The notes below the pieces were generated by a model. It was not told where the DNA came from, ran no database searches, and was given only the letters and a program-made list of their open reading frames with translations. The position numbers and the translations under genes were made by a program. A DNA stretch of 64,000 bases from contig CAZVPI010000005.1 of NCBI GenBank assembly GCA_964628035.1, positions 83,048 to 147,047 on the forward strand, written 5' to 3'. Shown here piece after piece: positions 8,772 through 53,123 of the stretch; position 1 is the first letter of the stretch, and every line of letters begins with the position of its first letter. Origin of the DNA: an uncultured Clostridia bacterium. GTDB taxonomy: Bacteria > Acidobacteriota > Aminicenantia > UBA2199.

Positions 8772-9988
8772 GCGTCGCCGCCCTGCTGCTGCTGTTCCTG
8801 GCCGCCCTGCTGTTCCACCTGCTGGAGAGCGCCTTCGAGAGCTTTTCGCGCATCTCGCTGGCCCGCTTCCTGGCCGGCATGGAGGGGCGGCGGCTGCCGC
8901 GCTTCCCCTTCGTGGAAAAGTTCGACCTGGTCATCCATTCGCTGGAGACGGTGGTCTTCGTGCTGCAGATCGTGCTGATGCTCTGCACCTTCCGCCAGCT
9001 GCGCCAGGCCCTGCCCTCGCCGCTGCTGCGCATCCTGCTGATCGGCCTGTTCTACCTGGTCTTCTTCAACGTGGTCTTCTACGTTTTGGCCTACCGCAAC
9101 CGCGAGGCCGTGCTGCGGGCCCTGATCTTCCTCTTCCCCGTGGCCTGGTTCCTGTTCTACCCGCTGAACTACGTCTTCTCGCTGCTGCTCAAGGAGAACG
9201 CCGTGGATCCCAAGCAGGAGTCGGAGGACGGCGAGATCACCGACGAGCAGGTGGAGGTGTTCCTGGAAGAGGGGGCCAAGGAGGGGGTGATCGAGAAGGA
9301 GGACCAGGAGATGATCGAGAGCGTCCTCGAGTTCGGCGACACCCTGGCCAAGGAGATCATGACCCCGCGGGTCAACACCGTCTACGTGCACATCGACTCC
9401 AGCCTGGAGGAGATCGTGGCCGTCATCCGCGAGAAGAAAAAGTCGCGGCTGCCGGTCGCCGCCGACAAGCTGGACAACGTCGAGGGCATCATCCTGGCCA
9501 AGGACGTCCTCGACTCCTGGGGGCGGAGCGACTTCGACATCCGCCGCATCCTGCGCCCGCCCTTCTTCGTCCCCGAGACCATGCGCATCCTGGAGCTGAT
9601 GAAGGAGATGCAGCGCACGAACCAGAAGTTCGCCATCGTCAGCGACGAGTTCGGCGGCGTCTCCGGCGTGATCAGCATGGAGGACATCATCGAGGAGATC
9701 GTCGGCGACATCAAGGACGAGTACGACGACGAGCTGGAGCCGATCGCCCGCGACCGCGACGGCTGGACCGTGCGCGGCGACACCTCCATCTACGAGCTGA
9801 ACGAGTCGCTGGACATCGAGATCGACGACAGCGCCGACTACCAGACCGTGGCCGGCCTGATCAGCTGCCTGCTGGGGCGCATACCGGCCGCCGGCGACCG
9901 CGTGACGGCCGAGGGGCACGCCTTCGAGGTGCGCGAGATGGAGCGCAACCGCATCAAGTCGGTGCGCGTCACCCGTGAAAAAAAGTAG
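8768..9988 (+). CDS. hemolysin-like CNNM/CBS/CorC-domain membrane protein
   Basis: N-terminal TM segments, EIMTPR, SRLPV, DEFGGVSG, EDIIEEIVGDIKDEYD, CorC-type C-terminus. Confidence 0.88.
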   Translation: MSVAALLLLFLAALLFHLLESAFESFSRISLARFLAGMEGRRLPRFPFVEKFDLVIHSLETVVFVLQIVLMLCTFRQLRQALPSPLLRILLIGLFYLVFFNVVFYVLAYRNREAVLRALIFLFPVAWFLFYPLNYVFSLLLKENAVDPKQESEDGEITDEQVEVFLEEGAKEGVIEKEDQEMIESVLEFGDTLAKEIMTPRVNTVYVHIDSSLEEIVAVIREKKKSRLPVAADKLDNVEGIILAKDVLDSWGRSDFDIRRILRPPFFVPETMRILELMKEMQRTNQKFAIVSDEFGGVSGVISMEDIIEEIVGDIKDEYDDELEPIARDRDGWTVRGDTSIYELNESLDIEIDDSADYQTVAGLISCLLGRIPAAGDRVTAEGHAFEVREMERNRIKSVRVTREKK

Positions 9989-19293: not shown

Positions 19294-19312
19294 CGCCGGC
19301 ATGGAGGACCCC

Positions 19313-20353
19313 ATGAAAAACGAGGAGATCCAACGGTTCGTCGAGAAGGTGATCAACGAAAAGATGCAGCTGCTGCTCAACCGCATCGACGCCTTCCAGA
19401 GCAGCGTCTTCCGCGACATCGAAAAGCTCAAGGACCTGGACGAGCTCACCCGGTTCACCCTGCCCCGCGAGCTCAGCGGCCGCGACGAGGACGCCGAGGC
19501 CGGGGCCGACATCGTTACCCTGAACGAATACGTCAGGAAGATCGCCGCCGCCGCCAACCAGCTGCTGCTCATCGGCGGCCTCATCGAGGGCATCAACCGC
19601 TTCTGCGACCGCGCCGCCTTGTTCCTGCTGCGCGACGACAAGCTGGTCGGCTGGCGCGGCAAGGGCTTCTCGGGAGAGAACGGCCAGATCAGCGACGAGG
19701 AGCTGAAGCGCATCTTCTTCTCCCTCTCGGCCAACACCGTGCTCAAGAGCGTCATCGAGGCCAAGAAGAGCTACAGCGGCGATCCGCTGGCCAAACCCGA
19801 CGACTTCCTGATCTACAACCGCCTCGGCGGCGGCAAGCCCAAGCGCATCTTCGTCCTGCCCTTCTTCGTCAAGGGCAAGCCCCAGGCGGTGATCTACGCC
19901 GACTCGCTCTCCGGCCGGGCGATCAAGAGCAAGCCGATCGAGATCCTGGCCACGGTGGGCGAGCTCAGCCTCGACATGCTGCCCATCCGCCAGAAGCTGC
20001 TGGCCAAGATCAAGACCCAGGAGTTCATCGAGGACACCGAGATCGAGCCCAGGTCGTACGAGCAGCACGCCGACGAGCTGGAGAAGACCTCGGCGCCGAC
20101 GCGCGAGAACGACCCCGAACGCTACGCGCGGGTGATCATCAACGACATCATCCTCTACAACAAGAAAGTGGTCGAGGACGGGATCAAGAACCGCAACCTG
20201 TACGATGCGCTCAAGGAGACCCTGCTGCAGGCCAAGGAGCTCTACCTGCGCCGCTCCAGCGACCTGCGCTACTTCGAGGAGCAGATGGTCAATGTCCTGG
20301 CCAAGGGCGACCGCGCGGCGTTGAAGGGCTACAAGTTTGAAGCTCTCAAGTAA
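19313..20353 (+). CDS. hypothetical protein with a GAF-like central region and conserved helical C-terminus
   Basis: strong GC3 coding bias; AALFLLRDDKLVGW and VLPFFVKGKPQAVIYAD resemble GAF strands; start could be 19301 or 19313. Confidence 0.7.
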   Translation: MKNEEIQRFVEKVINEKMQLLLNRIDAFQSSVFRDIEKLKDLDELTRFTLPRELSGRDEDAEAGADIVTLNEYVRKIAAAANQLLLIGGLIEGINRFCDRAALFLLRDDKLVGWRGKGFSGENGQISDEELKRIFFSLSANTVLKSVIEAKKSYSGDPLAKPDDFLIYNRLGGGKPKRIFVLPFFVKGKPQAVIYADSLSGRAIKSKPIEILATVGELSLDMLPIRQKLLAKIKTQEFIEDTEIEPRSYEQHADELEKTSAPTRENDPERYARVIINDIILYNKKVVEDGIKNRNLYDALKETLLQAKELYLRRSSDLRYFEEQMVNVLAKGDRAALKGYKFEALK

Positions 20354-25809: not shown

Positions 25810-26524
25810 ACCCGTTGCGCGGCAGGTTTCCGGCAAGCGTTTCTTCGTTCATGAAGAGGAAAACTTGATTTATGGCTATACAACGGTGGATTTCACTTCA
25901 ACCCGTCTCCAGGCCCTCTTTCCCGGCCAGCCCCTGCTGTTCCTCAAGCAGGTTCACGGCGTGCGCATCTTGGAGGAGGGGGAATGGCAACCGGCGAGCG
26001 AGGCGGACGGGCTTGTCGTGGAAAGGGGAGGTGGCGTGGCCGTGATCCAGACCGCCGACTGCCTGCCGCTCTTCTTCTTCGATGACGCGCGGAGGCGAGG
26101 CGGCGTCCTCCACGTCGGCTGGCGCGGGCTGAGGCGCGGCATCGAGGAGAGGCTCGCCGCCAGGCTGGGGCCCGCTCTGTCCACATATTTTTTTTTCCTG
26201 GGGCCGGGCATCGAGGGCGGCTGCTACGAAGTAGGGGAGGAGCTGCGGCAGCAGTTCTCGGAAAAGGCCTATGCCAAAGACATATTTTCCAAGAGCCGGC
26301 CCGGCAAGCTCCTCCTGGACCTCAAGGCCGGGCTGAAGGCCTCCCTGGGCGCGCTCGGCGTCCCCCGGGAGCGGATCGGTGATTGCGGCCTCTGCACCTC
26401 CTGCCTGCGCCTGTTCCCTTCCTACCGCCGCGACGGCGCCAGCGGCAGGCGCATCTTCAATTTCCTCGCCCTGGGGCCGAAGCGCCTGGCCGCGGCCGCG
26501 AACGAAACTTCTCCCGGCGCATAG
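25802..26524 (+). CDS. pgeF: PgeF/YfiH polyphenol-oxidase-like protein
   Basis: QVHG, ADGL, TADCLP, HVGWRG, GPGI, CYEV, PSYRR; GTG start. Confidence 0.88.
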   Translation: MTEPVARQVSGKRFFVHEEENLIYGYTTVDFTSTRLQALFPGQPLLFLKQVHGVRILEEGEWQPASEADGLVVERGGGVAVIQTADCLPLFFFDDARRRGGVLHVGWRGLRRGIEERLAARLGPALSTYFFFLGPGIEGGCYEVGEELRQQFSEKAYAKDIFSKSRPGKLLLDLKAGLKASLGALGVPRERIGDCGLCTSCLRLFPSYRRDGASGRRIFNFLALGPKRLAAAANETSPGA

Positions 26525-26538
26525 CCGTAACAGGGGTG

Positions 26539-27780
<1,242 letters not shown>

Positions 27781-27816
27781 GGCCCTGATGCGCGCCCAAG
27801 GGCAGGGGGGCAGGTC

Positions 27817-29064
27817 ATGAAGACGGGGCTGGTCCGCGAGGTGCTGGCCATGGCCCTGGATTCCATCCGCCAGAACAAGCTGCGCTCCTCGCTGACCATC
27901 CTGGGCATCGTCATCGGCGTGCTGACCATCGTGGCCATGGTGGCGGTCATCGAGGGGATCAACGCCAGCTTCGCCAGCCAGCTGGAAGCGATGGGCTCCA
28001 ACCTGCTGTTCGTCTACCGTTTCGAGCCTGGGATCCGCATCGGCCGCATGCCTGAAGAGCTGCGCCGCCGCAAGCCGATCACCTTCGCCGACGCCGAGGC
28101 CGTCGAGAGCTCCTGCCCAGCGGTGGCGGCCGCCAGCCCCGAGGTGAGTTTCTTCCGCTTTCTGCCGCCGGCGCGGGTGAAATACATGGCGAACGAAGTG
28201 GAAAATCCAGTCCTGAGCGGGGTGAACCACCGCTACCTGCAGATCTATGAGGAATACACCGTCGAAAGCGGCCGCTTCTTCACCGAGGCCGAGAACCTCA
28301 ACCGCCGCGAGGTGTGCGTCATCGGCGCCGAAATCGTCGACGCCCTGTTCCCCGGCCAGAGCCCGCTGAACAAGACGGTTGTTTTTGAAGGCAAAAAATT
28401 CATTGTCATCGGCACTTTAGGAAGAATCGGCAAGTTCATGGGCCAGAGCCGGGACAACCGCATGATCATCCCGGTCAACACTTTCCGCAAGTTCTTTCCC
28501 GGCGAGGACGACGTGACCGTGATCGTCAAGGTGCGCAGCAACGCCCGACTGGAGGCGGCCAAGGACGAGATCATCAATCTCATGCGGCTGCGCCGCAAGG
28601 TGAAGGCCAGCGAAAAGAACAATTTTTCGGTTTTCACCCAGGACACCATCGCCGGGCTGTACACGCAGCTGACCGGGGCCGCGTTCCTGGTCATGATCAT
28701 CATTTCCTCCATCGGACTGCTCGTCGGCGGCATCGGCGTCATGAACATCATGCTGGTCTCGGTGACGGAGCGCACCCGCGAGATCGGGCTGCGCAAGGCC
28801 ATCGGCGCCCGCGGCAGCGAGATCCGCAACCAGTTCCTGTACGAGGCCATCGTCCTGACCCTTGCAGGCGGGGGAGCCGGGGTCCTCTGCGGCGTCCTGC
28901 TCAGCCTGCTGATCAAGGCCCTCAGCGGCCTGCCCGTAAGCATCAATCCCTATTCCATTGTCGCCGCCCTGGCCGTGTCGACGTCGGTCGGGCTGTTCTT
29001 CGGCCTCTACCCGGCCAGCCAGGCGGCCAAGCTGGATCCGGTCACCGCGTTGCACTACGAATAG
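27817..29064 (+). CDS. MacB/FtsX-type ABC transporter permease
   Basis: NKLRSSLTILGIVIGV, GGIGVMNIMLVSVTERTREIGLRKAIGA, AAKLDPV. Confidence 0.9.
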   Translation: MKTGLVREVLAMALDSIRQNKLRSSLTILGIVIGVLTIVAMVAVIEGINASFASQLEAMGSNLLFVYRFEPGIRIGRMPEELRRRKPITFADAEAVESSCPAVAAASPEVSFFRFLPPARVKYMANEVENPVLSGVNHRYLQIYEEYTVESGRFFTEAENLNRREVCVIGAEIVDALFPGQSPLNKTVVFEGKKFIVIGTLGRIGKFMGQSRDNRMIIPVNTFRKFFPGEDDVTVIVKVRSNARLEAAKDEIINLMRLRRKVKASEKNNFSVFTQDTIAGLYTQLTGAAFLVMIIISSIGLLVGGIGVMNIMLVSVTERTREIGLRKAIGARGSEIRNQFLYEAIVLTLAGGGAGVLCGVLLSLLIKALSGLPVSINPYSIVAALAVSTSVGLFFGLYPASQAAKLDPVTALHYE

Positions 29065-29123
29065 AACCTGAACATCAAGTGAATCCCTCAGTTTTTGAAT
29101 GCCCTAATTTTACCGGCTTCTTT

Positions 29124-29151
29124 ATGTCGGATAAGATATATTATGTAAACC
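29124..29151 (+). other. dif-like XerCD recombination site ATGTCGGATAA-GATATA-TTATGTAAACC
   Basis: 11-6-11 architecture; hand alignment gives 21/28 identity to B. subtilis dif and 18/28 to E. coli dif; sits where gene orientation converges. Confidence 0.85.
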
Positions 29152-29163
29152 AATATCAGTTTT

Positions 29164-30000
29164 TCAAAAATCAGCGAGGTTTTTCAGCTTGTTTTCGCGT
29201 ATGTCGCGGATGAGTTTCTCCAGGACCTCGATCACCTTCTCCCTGTTCACCTTCTCCTGCTTGAACTGGAAATTGATCCTGACCTTCTTGTCGTCCGACT
29301 GAAAATTGAAGCGGAAGGTCTTTGCCGCTCCCTCGCCCTTGCGCTGCTCCTTGACGATCTCGCGCGAAACCGGCTTCTTGCCGTACTGGCTCAGAATCTC
29401 GTTCATCCTTTCCGGATCGGTCGTCTTGGTCAGCTCAAGAAGGAAAGACTTGGAGTCGATTCCTAACTGCAGGCACTTTTCGCGTATCTCCGCCGGCAGG
29501 TCGGTTATCCTGACCAGCTCGGTCACGGTCACCCGCGACTTGCCGATCTTCCTGGCGATCTCCTCGTGGGTGTAGCCATAGATCTCGGCCAGCGAACGCA
29601 CCGAATAGGCCTGCTCGAATACGTTCAGGTCCTTGCGCTGGATGTTCTCGACAATCGACATCTCCAGGGCCTCGTTGTCCGGGATGTCGTGCTCGATGCA
29701 TGGTATTTCCCGCATCCCGGCCTCCTTGGCGGCCCGGAAGCGCCTCTCGCCGGCGATGATCTCGAAATTGCCGTCCTTTGGCTTGACGATCACCGGCTCG
29801 ATGATGCCGTTCTCCTTGATGGAAAGGGTCAGTTCCTTCAGATCGCCCATGTCCCGTCTGGGCTGCATCTGGTTGGGCAGGATCTTCTCCACCGGGATGT
29901 TGCGGATGACCGGCGTCTTGGTCCGCAGGGATATCTCGTCCACCAGGTGGTGATCGTGCTTCATTTTGATGAAATCGGGCAAGCCTACTTTTTTAGCCAT
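29164..30000 (-). CDS. parB: ParB/Spo0J-family protein with divergent HTH
   Basis: NQMQPR, GIIEPVIV, IIAGERRFRAA CTPase motif, SIVENIQRKDL, HTH EEIARKIGKSRVTVTELVRI. Confidence 0.88.
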   Translation of the reverse strand: MAKKVGLPDFIKMKHDHHLVDEISLRTKTPVIRNIPVEKILPNQMQPRRDMGDLKELTLSIKENGIIEPVIVKPKDGNFEIIAGERRFRAAKEAGMREIPCIEHDIPDNEALEMSIVENIQRKDLNVFEQAYSVRSLAEIYGYTHEEIARKIGKSRVTVTELVRITDLPAEIREKCLQLGIDSKSFLLELTKTTDPERMNEILSQYGKKPVSREIVKEQRKGEGAAKTFRFNFQSDDKKVRINFQFKQEKVNREKVIEVLEKLIRDIRENKLKNLADF

Positions 30001-30754
30001 TTTTGATGATTTCCTTGGCCAGCTCCTGGTACTCGACCGCACCCCGGGAATTGGGGGCGAAGGTGAAGATCGATTCCTTGTAAGCCGGGCTCTCCTCCAG
30101 TCGGACATTCTTGGAGATGATGGTCTTGAAAACGCGTTCGGCGAACATCTTGCGGATGTGGGTCTCGCTGTCCTTGGCGATGACGATCCGCTTGTCGTAC
30201 ATGGTGATCAGGACGCCGAGCAGGCTGAGCTCGGGATTGCTGCGGGCGCGCACCTTCTCGAAGGTGTCGAGAAGGTCATCGGTCCCCTCCAGCGCGAAAT
30301 AGGAGGCCTGGATGGGGATGATCAGGTGGGTGGCGGCGACGAACGAATTGATGGTGATCAGCCCCAGCGTGGGAGGCGTGTCGATGAAGACGTAATCGAA
30401 CTTGTACTTGAAGGTGTCGAGCCTGTCCTTCAGGCGGTAATGCCCGTCGATCTCCCCTATCAGTTTCGATTCAAGCTTGGCCAGGGAGATCGAGGCCGGC
30501 AGCAGGGACAGGTTGATGATGCTGGTGGGCACGACCACGTCATCGAACGACATTTCGGTGTTTTCCAGAAGGTCGAAAGCCGAGCTTTTCTGCTGGCTGC
30601 GGTCCATGAAGGTGACGGTGGAATTGGCCTGGGGGTCCATGTCGATCAGCAACGTCTTGTGGCCCATGAGGGCAAATGCTGCCGCCAGGTTGATCGAGGT
30701 CGTGGTCTTGCCAACTCCCCCTTTCTGGTTCGCGATGGTGATGATCACGTTCAC
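29993..30754 (-). CDS. parA: ParA/Soj-family ATPase
   Basis: NQKGGVGKTT deviant Walker A, DMDPQANST, IDTPP, ESPAY; GTG start after AAGGA. Confidence 0.92.
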   Translation of the reverse strand: MNVIITIANQKGGVGKTTTSINLAAAFALMGHKTLLIDMDPQANSTVTFMDRSQQKSSAFDLLENTEMSFDDVVVPTSIINLSLLPASISLAKLESKLIGEIDGHYRLKDRLDTFKYKFDYVFIDTPPTLGLITINSFVAATHLIIPIQASYFALEGTDDLLDTFEKVRARSNPELSLLGVLITMYDKRIVIAKDSETHIRKMFAERVFKTIISKNVRLEESPAYKESIFTFAPNSRGAVEYQELAKEIIKNG

Positions 30755-30774
30755 TCCTTTATGTTCAGATTCGA

Positions 30775-30803
30775 TTTATAGTAAATGCAGGTTCGCTTGT
30801 CAA
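30775..30803 (-). promoter_or_regulatory. parAB promoter TTGACA-N17-TATAAA
   Basis: consensus -35 (30798-30803) and -10 (30775-30780) with 17-bp spacer. Confidence 0.75.
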
Positions 30804-30900
30804 TAGATAAAGTGAATAAGAATAGATGGAACGAACTCACAGTGTCGGTGTCAGTGCTGGAAACAGCAGTAGAACGAGCAACGGGCAAAATCACTTCATG

Positions 30901-30918
30901 ATGTCGGCATGCCGACAT
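30901..30918. promoter_or_regulatory. 18-bp perfect palindrome ATGTCGGCATGCCGACAT, candidate protein-binding site
   Basis: loopless palindrome in the der-parA intergenic region, about 100 bp upstream of the parAB -35. Confidence 0.55.
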
Positions 30919-31104
30919 TGGATTGATGATGGACCAAGAGGGCAAGGAGCTGGCATTCCCGGCAGAATAATTAAAAAAAATAATGAGGTATCATTTACAA
31001 AATCGTTGTTTTTTTGTGCGCTGACGTTAAAAACCCCTCTTAATAGCCGATATCTAATGATTTTTTAGTTCGTTGAGTGCTTTGGCCAACACGAACACTC
31101 CTCT

Positions 31105-32415
31105 CTATTTTTGAGATTGGATCTTGAAGAAAATCGGGATGCCCTCGAATCCCAGCTCCTGGATCAGCCGCTTCTTCAGGAACAGCTCGTCGGACGGGAG
31201 CAGCCTGGACCCTGATTTGGAGTGGAACTTGACGAAAAAAGGGCGCATCGATTCGATCGACACGAATTTCGGATTGAAAACGCGGTGGTCGGTGGTGGTT
31301 ATTTTCTTTTCGTGCAGGATGCGCTTGACCAGGTCGTTCAGGTGCGAGATCTTGATCTTCGCGTCCAGCTTGGCATTGATCGCCTGAGCCTTGTCGAGCA
31401 TGGAGAAGACGTTCTTGCCGCTCGCGGCCGAGACGGCGATCAAAGGGGCGAAATGCAAAGCGTGGAAGGGGGCTCGGACCCTCTCGAAGTACCTGTTGCC
31501 GGAGGTTCCCGCGTCCAGCAGGTCGGTCTTGTTTCCAACGATGAGCACCGGCTTGGCCGCCTTCGTCACCTTCTGGGCGATGAGCAGGTCGTTCTGGTCC
31601 ACTTTCTGCGTGATGTCGATGACAAAGAGGATGACGTCGGCGCGGCGCAGCTCGTTCTCGGCGCGGATGACGGCGGCGCATTCGGTGGTCTCCTTGACCT
31701 TCTGCATCTTGCGGATGCCGGCATTGTCCACCAGGATGAAGGTCTGGTTGTTGCGCCTGACCTCGAGGTCGACCGAGTCGCGGGTGGTCCCGGGCAGGGG
31801 GCTGACGATCACCTTGTCGTCGTTGAGAATGCGGTTGATCAGGGACGATTTGCCCACGTTGGGCTTGCCGATGATGCTGATGCGCGCCGCCGGCTCCTCC
31901 CCGCGCATGGGATCGGGGGCGTACTGCACGGCTTGATCGATCGCCGCGATCAGCGCTTCGACCCCCAGGTTGTGCTCGGCGGAGATGGGAACGAGGTCGG
32001 CGTTCAGTTCATAATAGGAAACGGGCAGCAGGAAGCGGTCGGGCGCATCGGCCTTGTTGACCACGGCGATGATCTTCTTGTGCAGCCTGCGGATGCTGAG
32101 GTAAAGGTCCTTTTCGTAGCCCAGCATCTCGCGCTTGCCGTCGAACAGGAAAACGATCAGGTCTGATTCCGATGCGGCCTGGAAGATCTTCCTGTTGATC
32201 TCCTCGGAGATGATCTCCTTGTCCGGGAAAAAGCCGCCGCTGTCCTGCAGGTCCAGCCATTTGTCACCCAGCCGCGTCTTTTGCCGGAACAGGTCGCGGG
32301 TCATCCCCGGCTGGTTGTGCACCAAGGCCTTGCGCTTGCCCAGCAGGCGGTTGAAGAGGGTCGACTTGCCCGTATTGGGCGCCCCGACGATGGTGACCAG
32401 CGGCAGCTTGCTCAT
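31105..32415 (-). CDS. der: ribosome biogenesis GTPase Der (EngA)
   Basis: two G-domains (GAPNTGKS, GKPNVGKSS, PGTTRD), NKAD and NKTD, KH-like C-terminus. Confidence 0.93.
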   Translation of the reverse strand: MSKLPLVTIVGAPNTGKSTLFNRLLGKRKALVHNQPGMTRDLFRQKTRLGDKWLDLQDSGGFFPDKEIISEEINRKIFQAASESDLIVFLFDGKREMLGYEKDLYLSIRRLHKKIIAVVNKADAPDRFLLPVSYYELNADLVPISAEHNLGVEALIAAIDQAVQYAPDPMRGEEPAARISIIGKPNVGKSSLINRILNDDKVIVSPLPGTTRDSVDLEVRRNNQTFILVDNAGIRKMQKVKETTECAAVIRAENELRRADVILFVIDITQKVDQNDLLIAQKVTKAAKPVLIVGNKTDLLDAGTSGNRYFERVRAPFHALHFAPLIAVSAASGKNVFSMLDKAQAINAKLDAKIKISHLNDLVKRILHEKKITTTDHRVFNPKFVSIESMRPFFVKFHSKSGSRLLPSDELFLKKRLIQELGFEGIPIFFKIQSQK

Positions 32416-32420
32416 CTCAT

Positions 32421-32575
32421 GGTGACAGTGACCGTGTCAGTGTCAGCAGGAAAATCGGGATCAAGAATTGTCGGAATCCTATTCTGAACTCGGGCACTGG
32501 CATGACGGTTCTGCTTCAGGATGGTCTCCAAGGGCATGGTTCAGGTCCTGCTGTCACTGTCAATGACACGGTCAC
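32421..32575. repeat. inverted pair of GTGAC/GTGTCA hexamer-repeat arms
   Basis: GTGACCGTGTCAGTGTCAGCAGGA (32428-32451) against TCCTGCTGTCACTGTCAATGACACGGTCAC (32546-32575). Confidence 0.6.
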
Positions 32576-33056
32576 CTGAAAAACGGATCATGGCGATGCT
32601 GAAGCACTCGATGGCCTCTCCCCTGCCGACCGCGTCCAGCTTTTCCTTCGTCTTGCCCTTGACGTTGATATCGCCCTGGGGAATGCCCAGGATCGAGGCC
32701 AGGCTGCCGGTGATCCGCTCCTTGAAGGGCGAGATCTTCGGCTCCTCGGCCACCACCACGCAGTCCAGGTTCATGATCTCGAAGCCTCCTTCGTCAAGGA
32801 GCGCCTTGACGCGCCGCAGCAGCTCGGCCCCGGCGATGCCCTTGCAGCGCGGGTCGCTGTCGGGGAAAAGCTCGCCGATGTCGGGACATCCCATGGCCCC
32901 GAGAAGGGCGTCGATCAGGGCGTGGATGAGCACGTCGCCGTCGGAATGGGCTTCGGCGCGGAGCGTGGGCGAGACCTTGACCCCGCCCAGCATCAGCCCC
33001 TCCCCCGGGACCAGGCGGTGAATGTCGTAGCCGACCCCGGAGCGGATCTTCATCAT
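32541..33056 (-). CDS. ispF: 2-C-methyl-D-erythritol 2,4-cyclodiphosphate synthase
   Basis: GVGYDIH, AHSDGDV, DIGELFPD, KTKEKL. Confidence 0.93.
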   Translation of the reverse strand: MMKIRSGVGYDIHRLVPGEGLMLGGVKVSPTLRAEAHSDGDVLIHALIDALLGAMGCPDIGELFPDSDPRCKGIAGAELLRRVKALLDEGGFEIMNLDCVVVAEEPKISPFKERITGSLASILGIPQGDINVKGKTKEKLDAVGRGEAIECFSIAMIRFSGDRVIDSDSRT

Positions 33057-50979: not shown

Positions 50980-51186
50980 AAGTTCCAAGCCCAATACCCT
51001 GGAAGCACCAGCGCTCGCAGACGTGGCACGTGGCACCCCACTTGGGGCTAATGCCTCTCGGTGAAACCGCCCCTGGCGGGGCCGGCAGCGTGGTGCCTTG
51101 ACGGACCGACGCTCCTTCATGGTGCTGAATTGGGCTTCAATAGCTCGCTGGCGACTTTTTCTTCAAGAAGCGATCGCTTGGGTTTC

Positions 51187-51215
51187 TTGACTTTCCCCGG
51201 CCTCCAGCGTACAGT
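51187..51215 (+). promoter_or_regulatory. promoter TTGACT-N17-TACAGT, 6 nt before ATG 51222
   Basis: 17-bp spacer, no SD; leaderless geometry. Confidence 0.65.
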
Positions 51216-51221
51216 GGCCTC

Positions 51222-53123
51222 ATGGTGGGCACCGCGAGCAATCTCGAGCAGATCCGCGCCATCCTGACGGAGAAGCGCCTGCGCATCTCCAGGCAGAGGA
51301 TCGCCGCCAGCCTGGCCCTGGTCGAGCAGTCGCAGGAGATCTTCCCCCAGCCCCAGCAGCAGGCACTGCTGGTGCACCTGCTGCATCTCCATGAAACAAG
51401 CAAGAAAAAGGTCCTGGTGCAGATGGAGGAACTGGGCGAGAAGCGCCTGCCGCTGACCGTGGTCATGGGCGTGCTGGCCGAGGACTGGAGCGGCATGGGC
51501 AACTCCATCCTGGGCATCATCCACCAGCGCCACGGCAACGTGTTGTTCATGAAGGGCTTCACCCTGACCCTGCGCGGCCGCAGCCTGGGCATCGTCATCC
51601 TCTCCTTCCGCATCGAAAGCGCCGAGGAATACGGCCGCTTCCTCAAGGACAAGCGCGCCCTGCTGGAGACGCTCAAGGACGCCTCGCAGGGCACGCTGGG
51701 CAAGACGCTGCTGCTGGAGGACGAGACCATCAAGTTCGAGCTCTACAACCAGGTGGTGCGCGCCATCCGCCGCACCTACCGCGGCCCCGACCTGGAGTCG
51801 ATCATCGGCGAGAACGGCGAGACGCTCAAGTTCTTCTCGTCGCGCTCCCGCGAATACCTGCAGGAGCGCAAGATCTCCGACCTGGCCGCGCTGATCATCG
51901 ACAACTACCGCTTCCAGAAGCAGGTGCGCGAGGGGCGCGCCGACAAGAAGATCAAGATCAAGAACTTCGAGACCCTCGACGAGCGCCTGACCGGCATCAC
52001 CTTCGTGTGCTGGGAGGAGAACTTCTCGGTCGAGAGCTTCCTCAAGACGCTGGACTTCATCGTCCCCGGTCACATCATCAAGCACCACAAGAGCTTCGTG
52101 TCGAGCGAGAAGCTCCTGGTCTACCGCATCGAGATCGTCGACCGCCAGGGGCAGCCGCTCAACCCCGAGGCCATCCGCTCCATCGAGGTCTCGCTGGAAA
52201 AGATGATCAGCGCCGCAGTCGACGAGACGTTCTCGCAGATCAAGTCGGTCGGCGGCTACGAGCACTACGCCCGGGCCATCATCCCCTTCCTGATGAACGA
52301 GCTGAAGACGACCGGCATCAGCCAGGTCTTCATGAGCGTGGAGAAGAAGACCGAGTTCCTGATGCAGCTCAAGCTGATCGTCGTCGCCAACCGCAGCCGG
52401 CGCAGGTGCCTGAATCCGCTGCTGCGGCTGCTGGAGGGCAGCCGCGGCATCGAGATCCTCTCGGTCGTGCCCCCGCGCCTCTACCAGAAGCAGACCGAGG
52501 TCAGCATCCTGAACCTCAAGGTCACCCTGGCCGAGTTCGCCTCCATCGCCGCCATTTTCCAGTCGATCAAGAACGTCCTGAAGAAGCTGTACGGCCAGGT
52601 GCGCGACTTCGACGAAGGGCTGCGCGACAGCGACATGCGCTCCCTGGCGGAGGTCAGCGCCGCGGCGCCCCGCCTGCACCCGCTGCTGATCAAGGAGATC
52701 TACTACAACCTCGACGAGATCTACCGCCTGGAGACGCCGCCCCGGGTCCTGGCCGAAATCATGAGCCTGGTCTGCTCCACCATCCGCGCCGCCGCCAAGG
52801 TGCGGCTGGACCGGGTGGTCGTCAAGTACCGCAGCATCCGCGAAGCGCATCGCAGCGAGCCGGTCAAGACCATCTTCGTGGTCTCCTACTCCCGGGAGAA
52901 GAAAGTCCTGAGCCGCTTCGTGAGGAACCTTCCCGGCCTGGACGTCTATTTCACCCGCATCGAATGGGAGCAGCGCTTCTACCTCATCCTGATCCTGAAA
53001 AAGGGCGGCCAGGGGCTGGGCGCCGACGAGATCGCCCGCATCCGCGCCTCGGTCCTGGACCGCTACTTCAAAAAGGCGCTGGTCATCGACGCCGCCTCCC
53101 AGGCGGCCGACGAGGAGTGCTGA
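51222..53123 (+). CDS. hypothetical 633-aa protein with probable repeated ACT-like domains
   Basis: strong coding bias; segments VLAEDWSGMGNSILGII and YRIEIVDRQGQPL resemble GlnD/large-GDH ACT repeats; no catalytic motif recognised. Confidence 0.65.
   Translation: MVGTASNLEQIRAILTEKRLRISRQRIAASLALVEQSQEIFPQPQQQALLVHLLHLHETSKKKVLVQMEELGEKRLPLTVVMGVLAEDWSGMGNSILGIIHQRHGNVLFMKGFTLTLRGRSLGIVILSFRIESAEEYGRFLKDKRALLETLKDASQGTLGKTLLLEDETIKFELYNQVVRAIRRTYRGPDLESIIGENGETLKFFSSRSREYLQERKISDLAALIIDNYRFQKQVREGRADKKIKIKNFETLDERLTGITFVCWEENFSVESFLKTLDFIVPGHIIKHHKSFVSSEKLLVYRIEIVDRQGQPLNPEAIRSIEVSLEKMISAAVDETFSQIKSVGGYEHYARAIIPFLMNELKTTGISQVFMSVEKKTEFLMQLKLIVVANRSRRRCLNPLLRLLEGSRGIEILSVVPPRLYQKQTEVSILNLKVTLAEFASIAAIFQSIKNVLKKLYGQVRDFDEGLRDSDMRSLAEVSAAAPRLHPLLIKEIYYNLDEIYRLETPPRVLAEIMSLVCSTIRAAAKVRLDRVVVKYRSIREAHRSEPVKTIFVVSYSREKKVLSRFVRNLPGLDVYFTRIEWEQRFYLILILKKGGQGLGADEIARIRASVLDRYFKKALVIDAASQAADEEC

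Follow-up and report, generated by a model that had tools for sequence, protein, structure and literature searches.

The window, by which the whole stretch of 64,000 nucleotides analysed here is meant, is core chromosomal DNA with ribosomal protein genes, dnaB, ddl and uvrB. Its called genes form two sets of opposite orientation. From 0.3 to 29.06 kb all of them are on the plus strand, save for an unannotated region at about 12.5-14.5 kb, and from 29.16 to 50.85 kb all are on the minus strand. The left set contains metF, metH, phoH, era and the genes of an HD-domain membrane protein and a CorC-type protein, as well as those of a histidine kinase, an OPT transporter, an M24 peptidase, a phosphoesterase, an SLT transglycosylase and an esterase, and it ends with ddl, ruvX, mltG, a Cu-oxidase_4 protein gene and two MacB-like permease genes. 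The right set is comprised of parB, parA, der, the gene of a PIN-TRAM protein, radA, dnaB, rplI, rpsR and rpsF and, further right, pth, rplY, prs, ispE, lolB, an amino-acid permease gene and an AcrB/HlyD/OEP efflux set; a TetR regulator gene and tag also belong to it. The two sets, which together span about 50 kb and include rpsF-rpsR-rplI, dnaB, der, era and ddl, converge on a 28-bp sequence, the 28-mer, which lies in the gap between them (Table 1). Two tRNA genes are the only RNA genes of the window, and xerC, xerD and ftsK are absent from its annotated genes.

Table 1. Coordinates of the 28-mer, its parts and the adjoining genes in the window
Feature	Position	Strand	Remarks
MacB/FtsX-type permease gene, second of the pair	27817-29064	+	Convergent with parB, left of the gap
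Intergenic gap holding the 28-mer	29065-29163		99 bp, 33 % GC
Proposed dif site, 28 bp	29124-29151	+	ATGTCGGATAAGATATATTATGTAAACC; 11-6-11 layout, ATGTCGGATAA-GATATA-TTATGTAAACC
Left arm, presumed XerC-binding	29124-29134	+	ATGTCGGATAA; assigned by position and by analogy with E. coli and B. subtilis dif
Central region, 6 bp, presumed strand exchange	29135-29140	+	GATATA
Right arm, presumed XerD-binding	29141-29151	+	TTATGTAAACC; faces the 3' end of parB
parB, 278 aa	29164-30000	-	Pfam ParB_N and HTH_ParB; NCBIfam parB_part above cut-off
parA, Soj-type ATPase	29993-30754	-	Pfam AAA_31/CbiA/ParA

The stop codon of parB (29164-29166) is 12 nt from the 28-mer. The call of this gene, the product of which is of the chromosomal TIGR00180 type, was taken from locus L001. 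The statement of the earlier note that parAB, dnaB and rpsF-rpsR-rplI are found within 10 kb of the site holds, as parB and parA abut the 28-mer, dnaB is 6.4 kb away and rplI-rpsR-rpsF are at 7.8-9 kb. The AT-rich gap of about 100 bp between convergent genes is also as described there; it separates the plus-strand permease gene from the minus-strand parB, and its GC content compares with 65.6 % for the window. No convincing terminator or hairpin was found in the gap and no Rfam family matches it. A weak sigma-70-like match on the minus strand overlaps the right arm of the 28-mer.

Several other features of the window were recorded. The parB-parA-der region (29000-33000) has a GC content of 0.54-0.59 compared to 0.65-0.72 in the rest of the window, and the GC3 of parB is 0.76 compared to about 0.9 elsewhere. 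Two plus-strand open reading frames, at 51144-53120 (659 aa) and 19301-20350 (350 aa), have a gene-like codon composition and no Pfam or NCBIfam match. The segment 12535-14500, between the histidine kinase and OPT transporter genes, is inside an open frame of 1302 aa, which has a family match in its C-terminal half only (about 14.6-16.4 kb). Two segments in the MacB pair (27335-27501 and 28671-28837) show 5- to 60-fold spikes of contig depth in all four public runs, which were examined as assembled contigs, and many short contigs map to them at 90-95 % identity. The spikes are probably due to conserved FtsX/MacB motifs in paralogues of other community members.

The dif site is the chromosome dimer resolution site of XerC/XerD-type recombinases. 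The 28-mer has the layout of such a site, with two 11-bp imperfectly palindromic arms flanking a 6-bp centre, and it agrees with the dif consensus both in the XerD arm (TTATGTnAAnn) and in the inner ATAA of the XerC arm. It is identical to B. subtilis dif, the site of RipX/CodV and SpoIIIE/SftA, at 21 of 28 positions; the right arms are alike (10/11), whereas the left arms are little alike (6/11). The 11-6-11 layout and the counts of 21/28 and 10/11, obtained by hand in the earlier note, are thus correct. Identity to the dif of E. coli, which is served by XerC-XerD and FtsK-KOPS, is 18/28, and the architecture and inner bases of the arms (ATAA...TTATGT) are shared. Dif predictions exist for three Acidobacteria (Kono et al. 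2011, PMC3025954), including Koribacter versatilis Ellin345 (ATGTCCGATAACAGATATTATGTTAACT at 2,622,908) and Solibacter usitatus (ACTTCCGATAACGAATATTATGTCAACT at 4,815,082), and the Acidobacteria sites were best modelled by the Firmicutes profile, which accounts for the B. subtilis-like right arm of the 28-mer. The Koribacter site, from the same phylum, has the same 11-6-11 layout and shares 23 of 28 bases with the 28-mer (left arm 10/11, right arm 9/11), but its centre is CAGATA and not GATATA.

When the 64-kb window was searched for other dif copies, as the earlier note had proposed, the relaxed dif core with up to three mismatches gave a single match, the 28-mer itself, and 0 of 100 shuffles gave any. 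The expectation by chance for the 19 fixed core bases, calculated from composition, is 2.5e-9 per window. A cross-species scan with the pattern CNNATAANNTATATTATGTAAAC, covering 8-kb stretches and one genome per species, found the 23-nt dif core in the genomes of at least 120 species with one match per stretch, compared to about four expected by chance. No assembly occurs twice among the 120 stretches listed, and the listed matches span Bacillota, Desulfobacterota, Acidobacteriota, Gemmatimonadota, Ignavibacteria and others. The unconstrained positions of the pattern are conserved as well (T at position 4 in 112 of the 120 listed), and the 28-mer agrees with them. Among the matches listed, convergent flanks were found at 39 of 90 dif-type sites, which is a 2.4-fold enrichment over a baseline of 18 %. 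On one Acidobacteriota chromosome (L050, OY761556.1) a full-length XerD homologue, 43 % identical to an E. coli probe, is encoded at 1615-2499 of the locus, about 2.5 kb from the dif of that chromosome. XerD-like genes are also near the dif-type site in L012, L024, L027 and L104.

The 28-mer is conserved in relatives of the window. Wherever a source name is given for ParB homologues of 70-97 % identity, it is Candidatus Aminicenantes, and the exact sequence is present in anaerobic digester, sludge and bioreactor metagenomes. Out of 34 metagenome loci encoding a ParB relative, 29 contain the 28-mer at 24-28 of 28 identical bases, 16-264 nt past parB; its TTATGTAAAC arm faces parB in every case. 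The five others are three contigs that end inside parB, a non-orthologous locus and L130. The identical geometry is found in five species-representative Acidobacteriota genomes, namely an Aminicenantes chromosome, a Thermoanaerobaculia MAG and three others. Overall, the spacing between parB and the 28-mer is 12-264 nt and the orientation is the same throughout, even at a ParB identity of 36-45 %. Contigs of four independent studies span the locus unchanged, and neither an alternative junction nor an integrated element was found in the four runs.

The contig of L130, the ParB of which is 81 % identical, stops 121 nt past parB in unrelated sequence without dif (8832-8952), and its final bases, CCATTCCATAATAAGT, loosely resemble a Xer arm. 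It could represent either an insertion at dif or an assembly break.

When 35 distinct loci are anchored on the 28-mer, the information content is 1.76 bits per column in the 28-mer, compared to 0.26 and 0.33 in the two 30-nt flanks. The 28-mer is therefore conserved as a discrete non-coding element, and it can be taken to be under purifying selection that is confined to exactly these 28 bases. In the right arm, 33 of the 35 loci share TTATGTAAAC without change, and L154 and L155 carry TTATGTCAAC instead. In the left arm the inner TCGGATAA is nearly fixed and the outer three bases vary, a combination that is usual for a XerC arm. The centre occurs as GATATA, GATAGA, TGTATA or GGTATA. Such base-for-base conservation between random flanks is the pattern of a protein-binding recombination site and excludes a chance sequence, a terminator and a promoter. 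The proposal of the earlier note that the 28-mer would be a XerCD-type dif site is strongly supported by this comparison.

The variation at position 16 of the 28-mer (29139 of the window) was followed in L124-L140. Most Aminicenantes relatives with a ParB identity of 71-90 % have the GATAGA centre; GATATA is found in the window, L125, L129 and more distant lineages.

On the parB side of the site the order of the genes is constant in Aminicenantes (PIN-TRAM, der, parA, parB), whereas three forms of the far side were found. The first is the MacB pair followed by Cu-oxidase_4, mltG, ruvX and ddl, the second is the same set of genes without the MacB pair, and the third consists of unrelated genes (M20 peptidase, YmdB-RNase Y, ABC auxiliary protein, S9 peptidase). 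The synteny breakpoints thus fall at the 28-mer. The MacB pair (26383-29064) is present in L125, L129 and L145 and absent from L132, L136, L137 and L139, an indel at dif; in the latter four the Cu-oxidase_4 gene faces dif directly. In the closed genome of Candidatus Aminicenantes bin34 (CP070750.1, 4,351,283 bp), which has the same parA-parB-dif order, the site is near 3,066,000. Upstream of parA, the bin34 chromosome has an SDR gene, and three other Acidobacteriota have a miaB/rimO-like gene and a BFN nuclease gene there and lptFG beyond dif. The block common to the deep Acidobacteriota lineages is parA-parB-dif alone (29124-30754 in the window; L007, L014, L023, L086, L118 and L124-L155). 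As this block is kept across Acidobacteriota classes, the arrangement is ancient and not the product of a recent rearrangement. Comparison of the genomes thus leads us to regard the position of dif after parA-parB as an old, conserved trait of Aminicenantes and other Acidobacteriota classes. Of the two explanations that the earlier note offered for the neighbours of the site, an unusual chromosome layout and a rearrangement, the former stands in comparison to model bacteria and the latter does not agree with the age of the block.

ParAB genes were found beside the site in 0 of about 115 other dif loci listed, including those of Terriglobia and Bryobacterales, and Acidobacteriota loci outside the parB-linked lineages (L050, L064, L067 and L123) have no adjacent parB, in contrast to the window, where parB abuts the site. 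In B. subtilis, about 180 degrees separate dif from parAB (soj-spo0J), which is located at the origin. A parS site (a 16-bp palindrome near TGTTTCACGTGAAACA, up to three mismatches allowed) was found neither in the 64-kb window nor in 360 kb of related parAB loci. The 28-mer itself is unrelated in sequence to parS and was rejected as a parS candidate. No description of a parB-dif linkage or of Aminicenantes replication features was found in the literature, and the adjacency of parAB and dif appears to be undescribed so far.

The location of the 28-mer relative to the replication terminus was assessed from gene orientation, skew, polar motifs and origin features. The location of dif in the terminus region is an established rule, and the predicted sites of Koribacter and Solibacter are at about 46 % and 48 % of the chromosome, respectively, given the sizes of these genomes. 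Ribosomal protein genes, dnaB, der, era and ddl are usually transcribed in the direction of replication. In model Firmicutes parAB, dnaB and rpsF-rpsR-rplI are origin-proximal, and a terminus location of these genes is atypical. The convergence of genes at the site recurs in five of six distant relatives, in which the far-side genes are unrelated. Taken together, the dif rule, the convergence of gene orientation over about 50 kb, its recurrence in five of the six relatives and the enrichment of convergent flanks at dif-type sites make it plausible that the 28-mer marks the replication terminus.

The GC skew of the window changes from about -0.05 to about +0.05 at 29 kb, where the cumulative skew has its minimum, which is the sign expected of an origin. 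Codon-position analysis gave a coding-strand GC3 skew of about -0.15 for almost all genes of the window, whichever strand they are on, and the flip therefore mirrors the convergence of the genes. The skew change at the orthologous site is from plus to minus in relatives of low GC (33-43 %), slight in mid-GC relatives and from minus to plus in high-GC relatives, as seen when L023, L145 and L149 are compared to L125, L129 and L132. The coding-strand GC3 skew itself is about -0.15 in high-GC members and about zero to positive in low-GC members. Since the skew follows the coding strand and its sign varies with genomic GC, it cannot decide between terminus and origin, and it was rejected as a test of the terminus. 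The skew switch that the earlier note had named as a check is thus present but of the opposite sign, and it is an effect of codon usage and gene orientation. Known KOPS/SRS-type motifs, which orient the translocase, show no polarity in the window, where GGGNAGGG is split 8:8 between the orientations, and its 36:15 ratio in the pooled relatives is confounded with the coding strand. Octamers found de novo to be skewed are derived from codons. Compared to the E. coli dif, the window has no skew switch of terminus sign and shows an even split of GGGNAGGG.

Origin features are absent from the window as well. Its annotated genes do not include dnaA, and there is no DnaA-box cluster; two single DnaA-box-like matches, compared to three expected, were found, neither of them near the 28-mer. 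The window locus was therefore rejected as oriC. An origin-type rsmG/mnmG/dnaA cluster was not found upstream of parA in the deep relatives examined. A dnaA motif probe had no match over 1.25 Mb of retrieved DNA, a result of little weight since the probe had no positive control. The earlier note's designation of the site as the probable terminus is accordingly plausible, being consistent with the convergence of the genes and the lack of origin features nearby; the skew flip, which has the sign of an origin, says nothing about replication.

The 28-mer could, in principle, be an accessory Xer site tied to parAB, the main terminus dif being elsewhere; it would then be either a relic of a plasmid- or chromid-like partition and multimer-resolution cassette or a docking site for Xer-integrating elements. 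The 28-mer does travel with parA-parB while all other neighbours change, the terminus position is plausible only, and the L130 contig, which runs into unrelated sequence, has no 28-mer past parB. On plasmids, par loci are often accompanied by Xer sites, and plasmid Xer sites such as cer, psi and mwr are used by the same recombinases, have a similar core and often lie beside partition genes. These sites and the dif-flanked modules, however, either depend on some 180 bp of accessory sequence or form pairs on both sides of a module, whereas the site of the window is conserved over 28 bp without cer/psi-like accessory sequences and is present in one copy in the 64 kb of core chromosomal DNA of the window. 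Moreover, the matches of L007, L014, L023, L086 and L118 are beside parB with no second match among the 120 listed, the ParB is of the chromosomal type, and the four runs contain neither an integrated element nor an alternative junction. An accessory site thus retains a slight probability. Whether a genuine dif could be near the replication origin, with replication laid out very asymmetrically or in some other unorthodox way, is a question raised by the skew minimum at 29 kb and by the neighbours of the site, since B. subtilis has parAB, dnaB and rpsF-rpsR-rplI near its origin. The skew, though, tracks the coding strand and has the opposite sign at the orthologous site of low-GC relatives; dnaA, a DnaA-box cluster and parS are missing from the window, parS from the 360 kb of related loci and rsmG/mnmG from the parA-flanking genes examined in relatives. 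Such a layout would also place essential and highly expressed genes head-on to replication, against a near-universal rule, and its probability is slighter still.

An AT-rich, palindrome-like sequence arising by chance, or a mere transcription terminator or promoter, might be suspected from the AT-richness of the gap and from the sigma-70-like match on the right arm. Against these readings are the expectation of 2.5e-9, the conservation of every base in 35 loci with random flanks, the occurrence of the same core in at least 120 species and, for a terminator or promoter, the lack of a hairpin and of an Rfam family in the gap. The conservation data refute all three, and their probability is negligible.

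The explanation that we favour, with good confidence, is that the 28-mer is the chromosomal dif of an uncultured high-GC Candidatus Aminicenantes bacterium (Acidobacteriota) of anaerobic digesters and sludge, that it most likely lies in the terminus region and that it has been linked to parA-parB since ancient times. Taken alone, the claim that the 28-mer is a predicted Xer target deserves higher confidence than this explanation as a whole, and the 28-mer is very probably a genuine site for untangling joined daughter chromosomes. By analogy with E. coli and B. subtilis, a XerC-type tyrosine recombinase would bind the variable left arm, ATGTCGGATAA, and a XerD-type recombinase the nearly invariant right arm, TTATGTAAACC. 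A translocase of the FtsK/SpoIIIE type would bring two dif copies together at the division septum, and the recombinases would then exchange strands across GATATA, by which a chromosome dimer would become monomers. The site would most likely be situated in the terminus region, where the two co-oriented gene sets meet.

As a dif site the 28-mer is ordinary in kind, and the interesting part is the linkage of parAB and dif without a nearby parS. That this linkage, which Aminicenantes share with at least three further lineages of Acidobacteriota, is functional is a rather doubtful proposition, and a frozen accident is the alternative. Possible functions are a terminus-timed dosage or expression of the partition proteins, handling of the terminus by ParA/ParB, or a coupling of segregation to dimer resolution by these proteins.

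For a candidate lineage known only from metagenomes, the dif site provides a fixed landmark, the probable terminus, which can be used for checking MAG assemblies, for orienting replichores and for estimating growth from coverage. Naive GC-skew tests may give the wrong sign in high-GC genomes with C-rich coding strands, and the reversal of the sign with genomic GC is a trap for skew-based origin and terminus calls in MAGs. The adjacency of parAB and dif contradicts the textbook view of parAB as a marker of the origin region. If the linkage is functional, it would hint at an unexplored tie between the partition proteins and the processing of the terminus.
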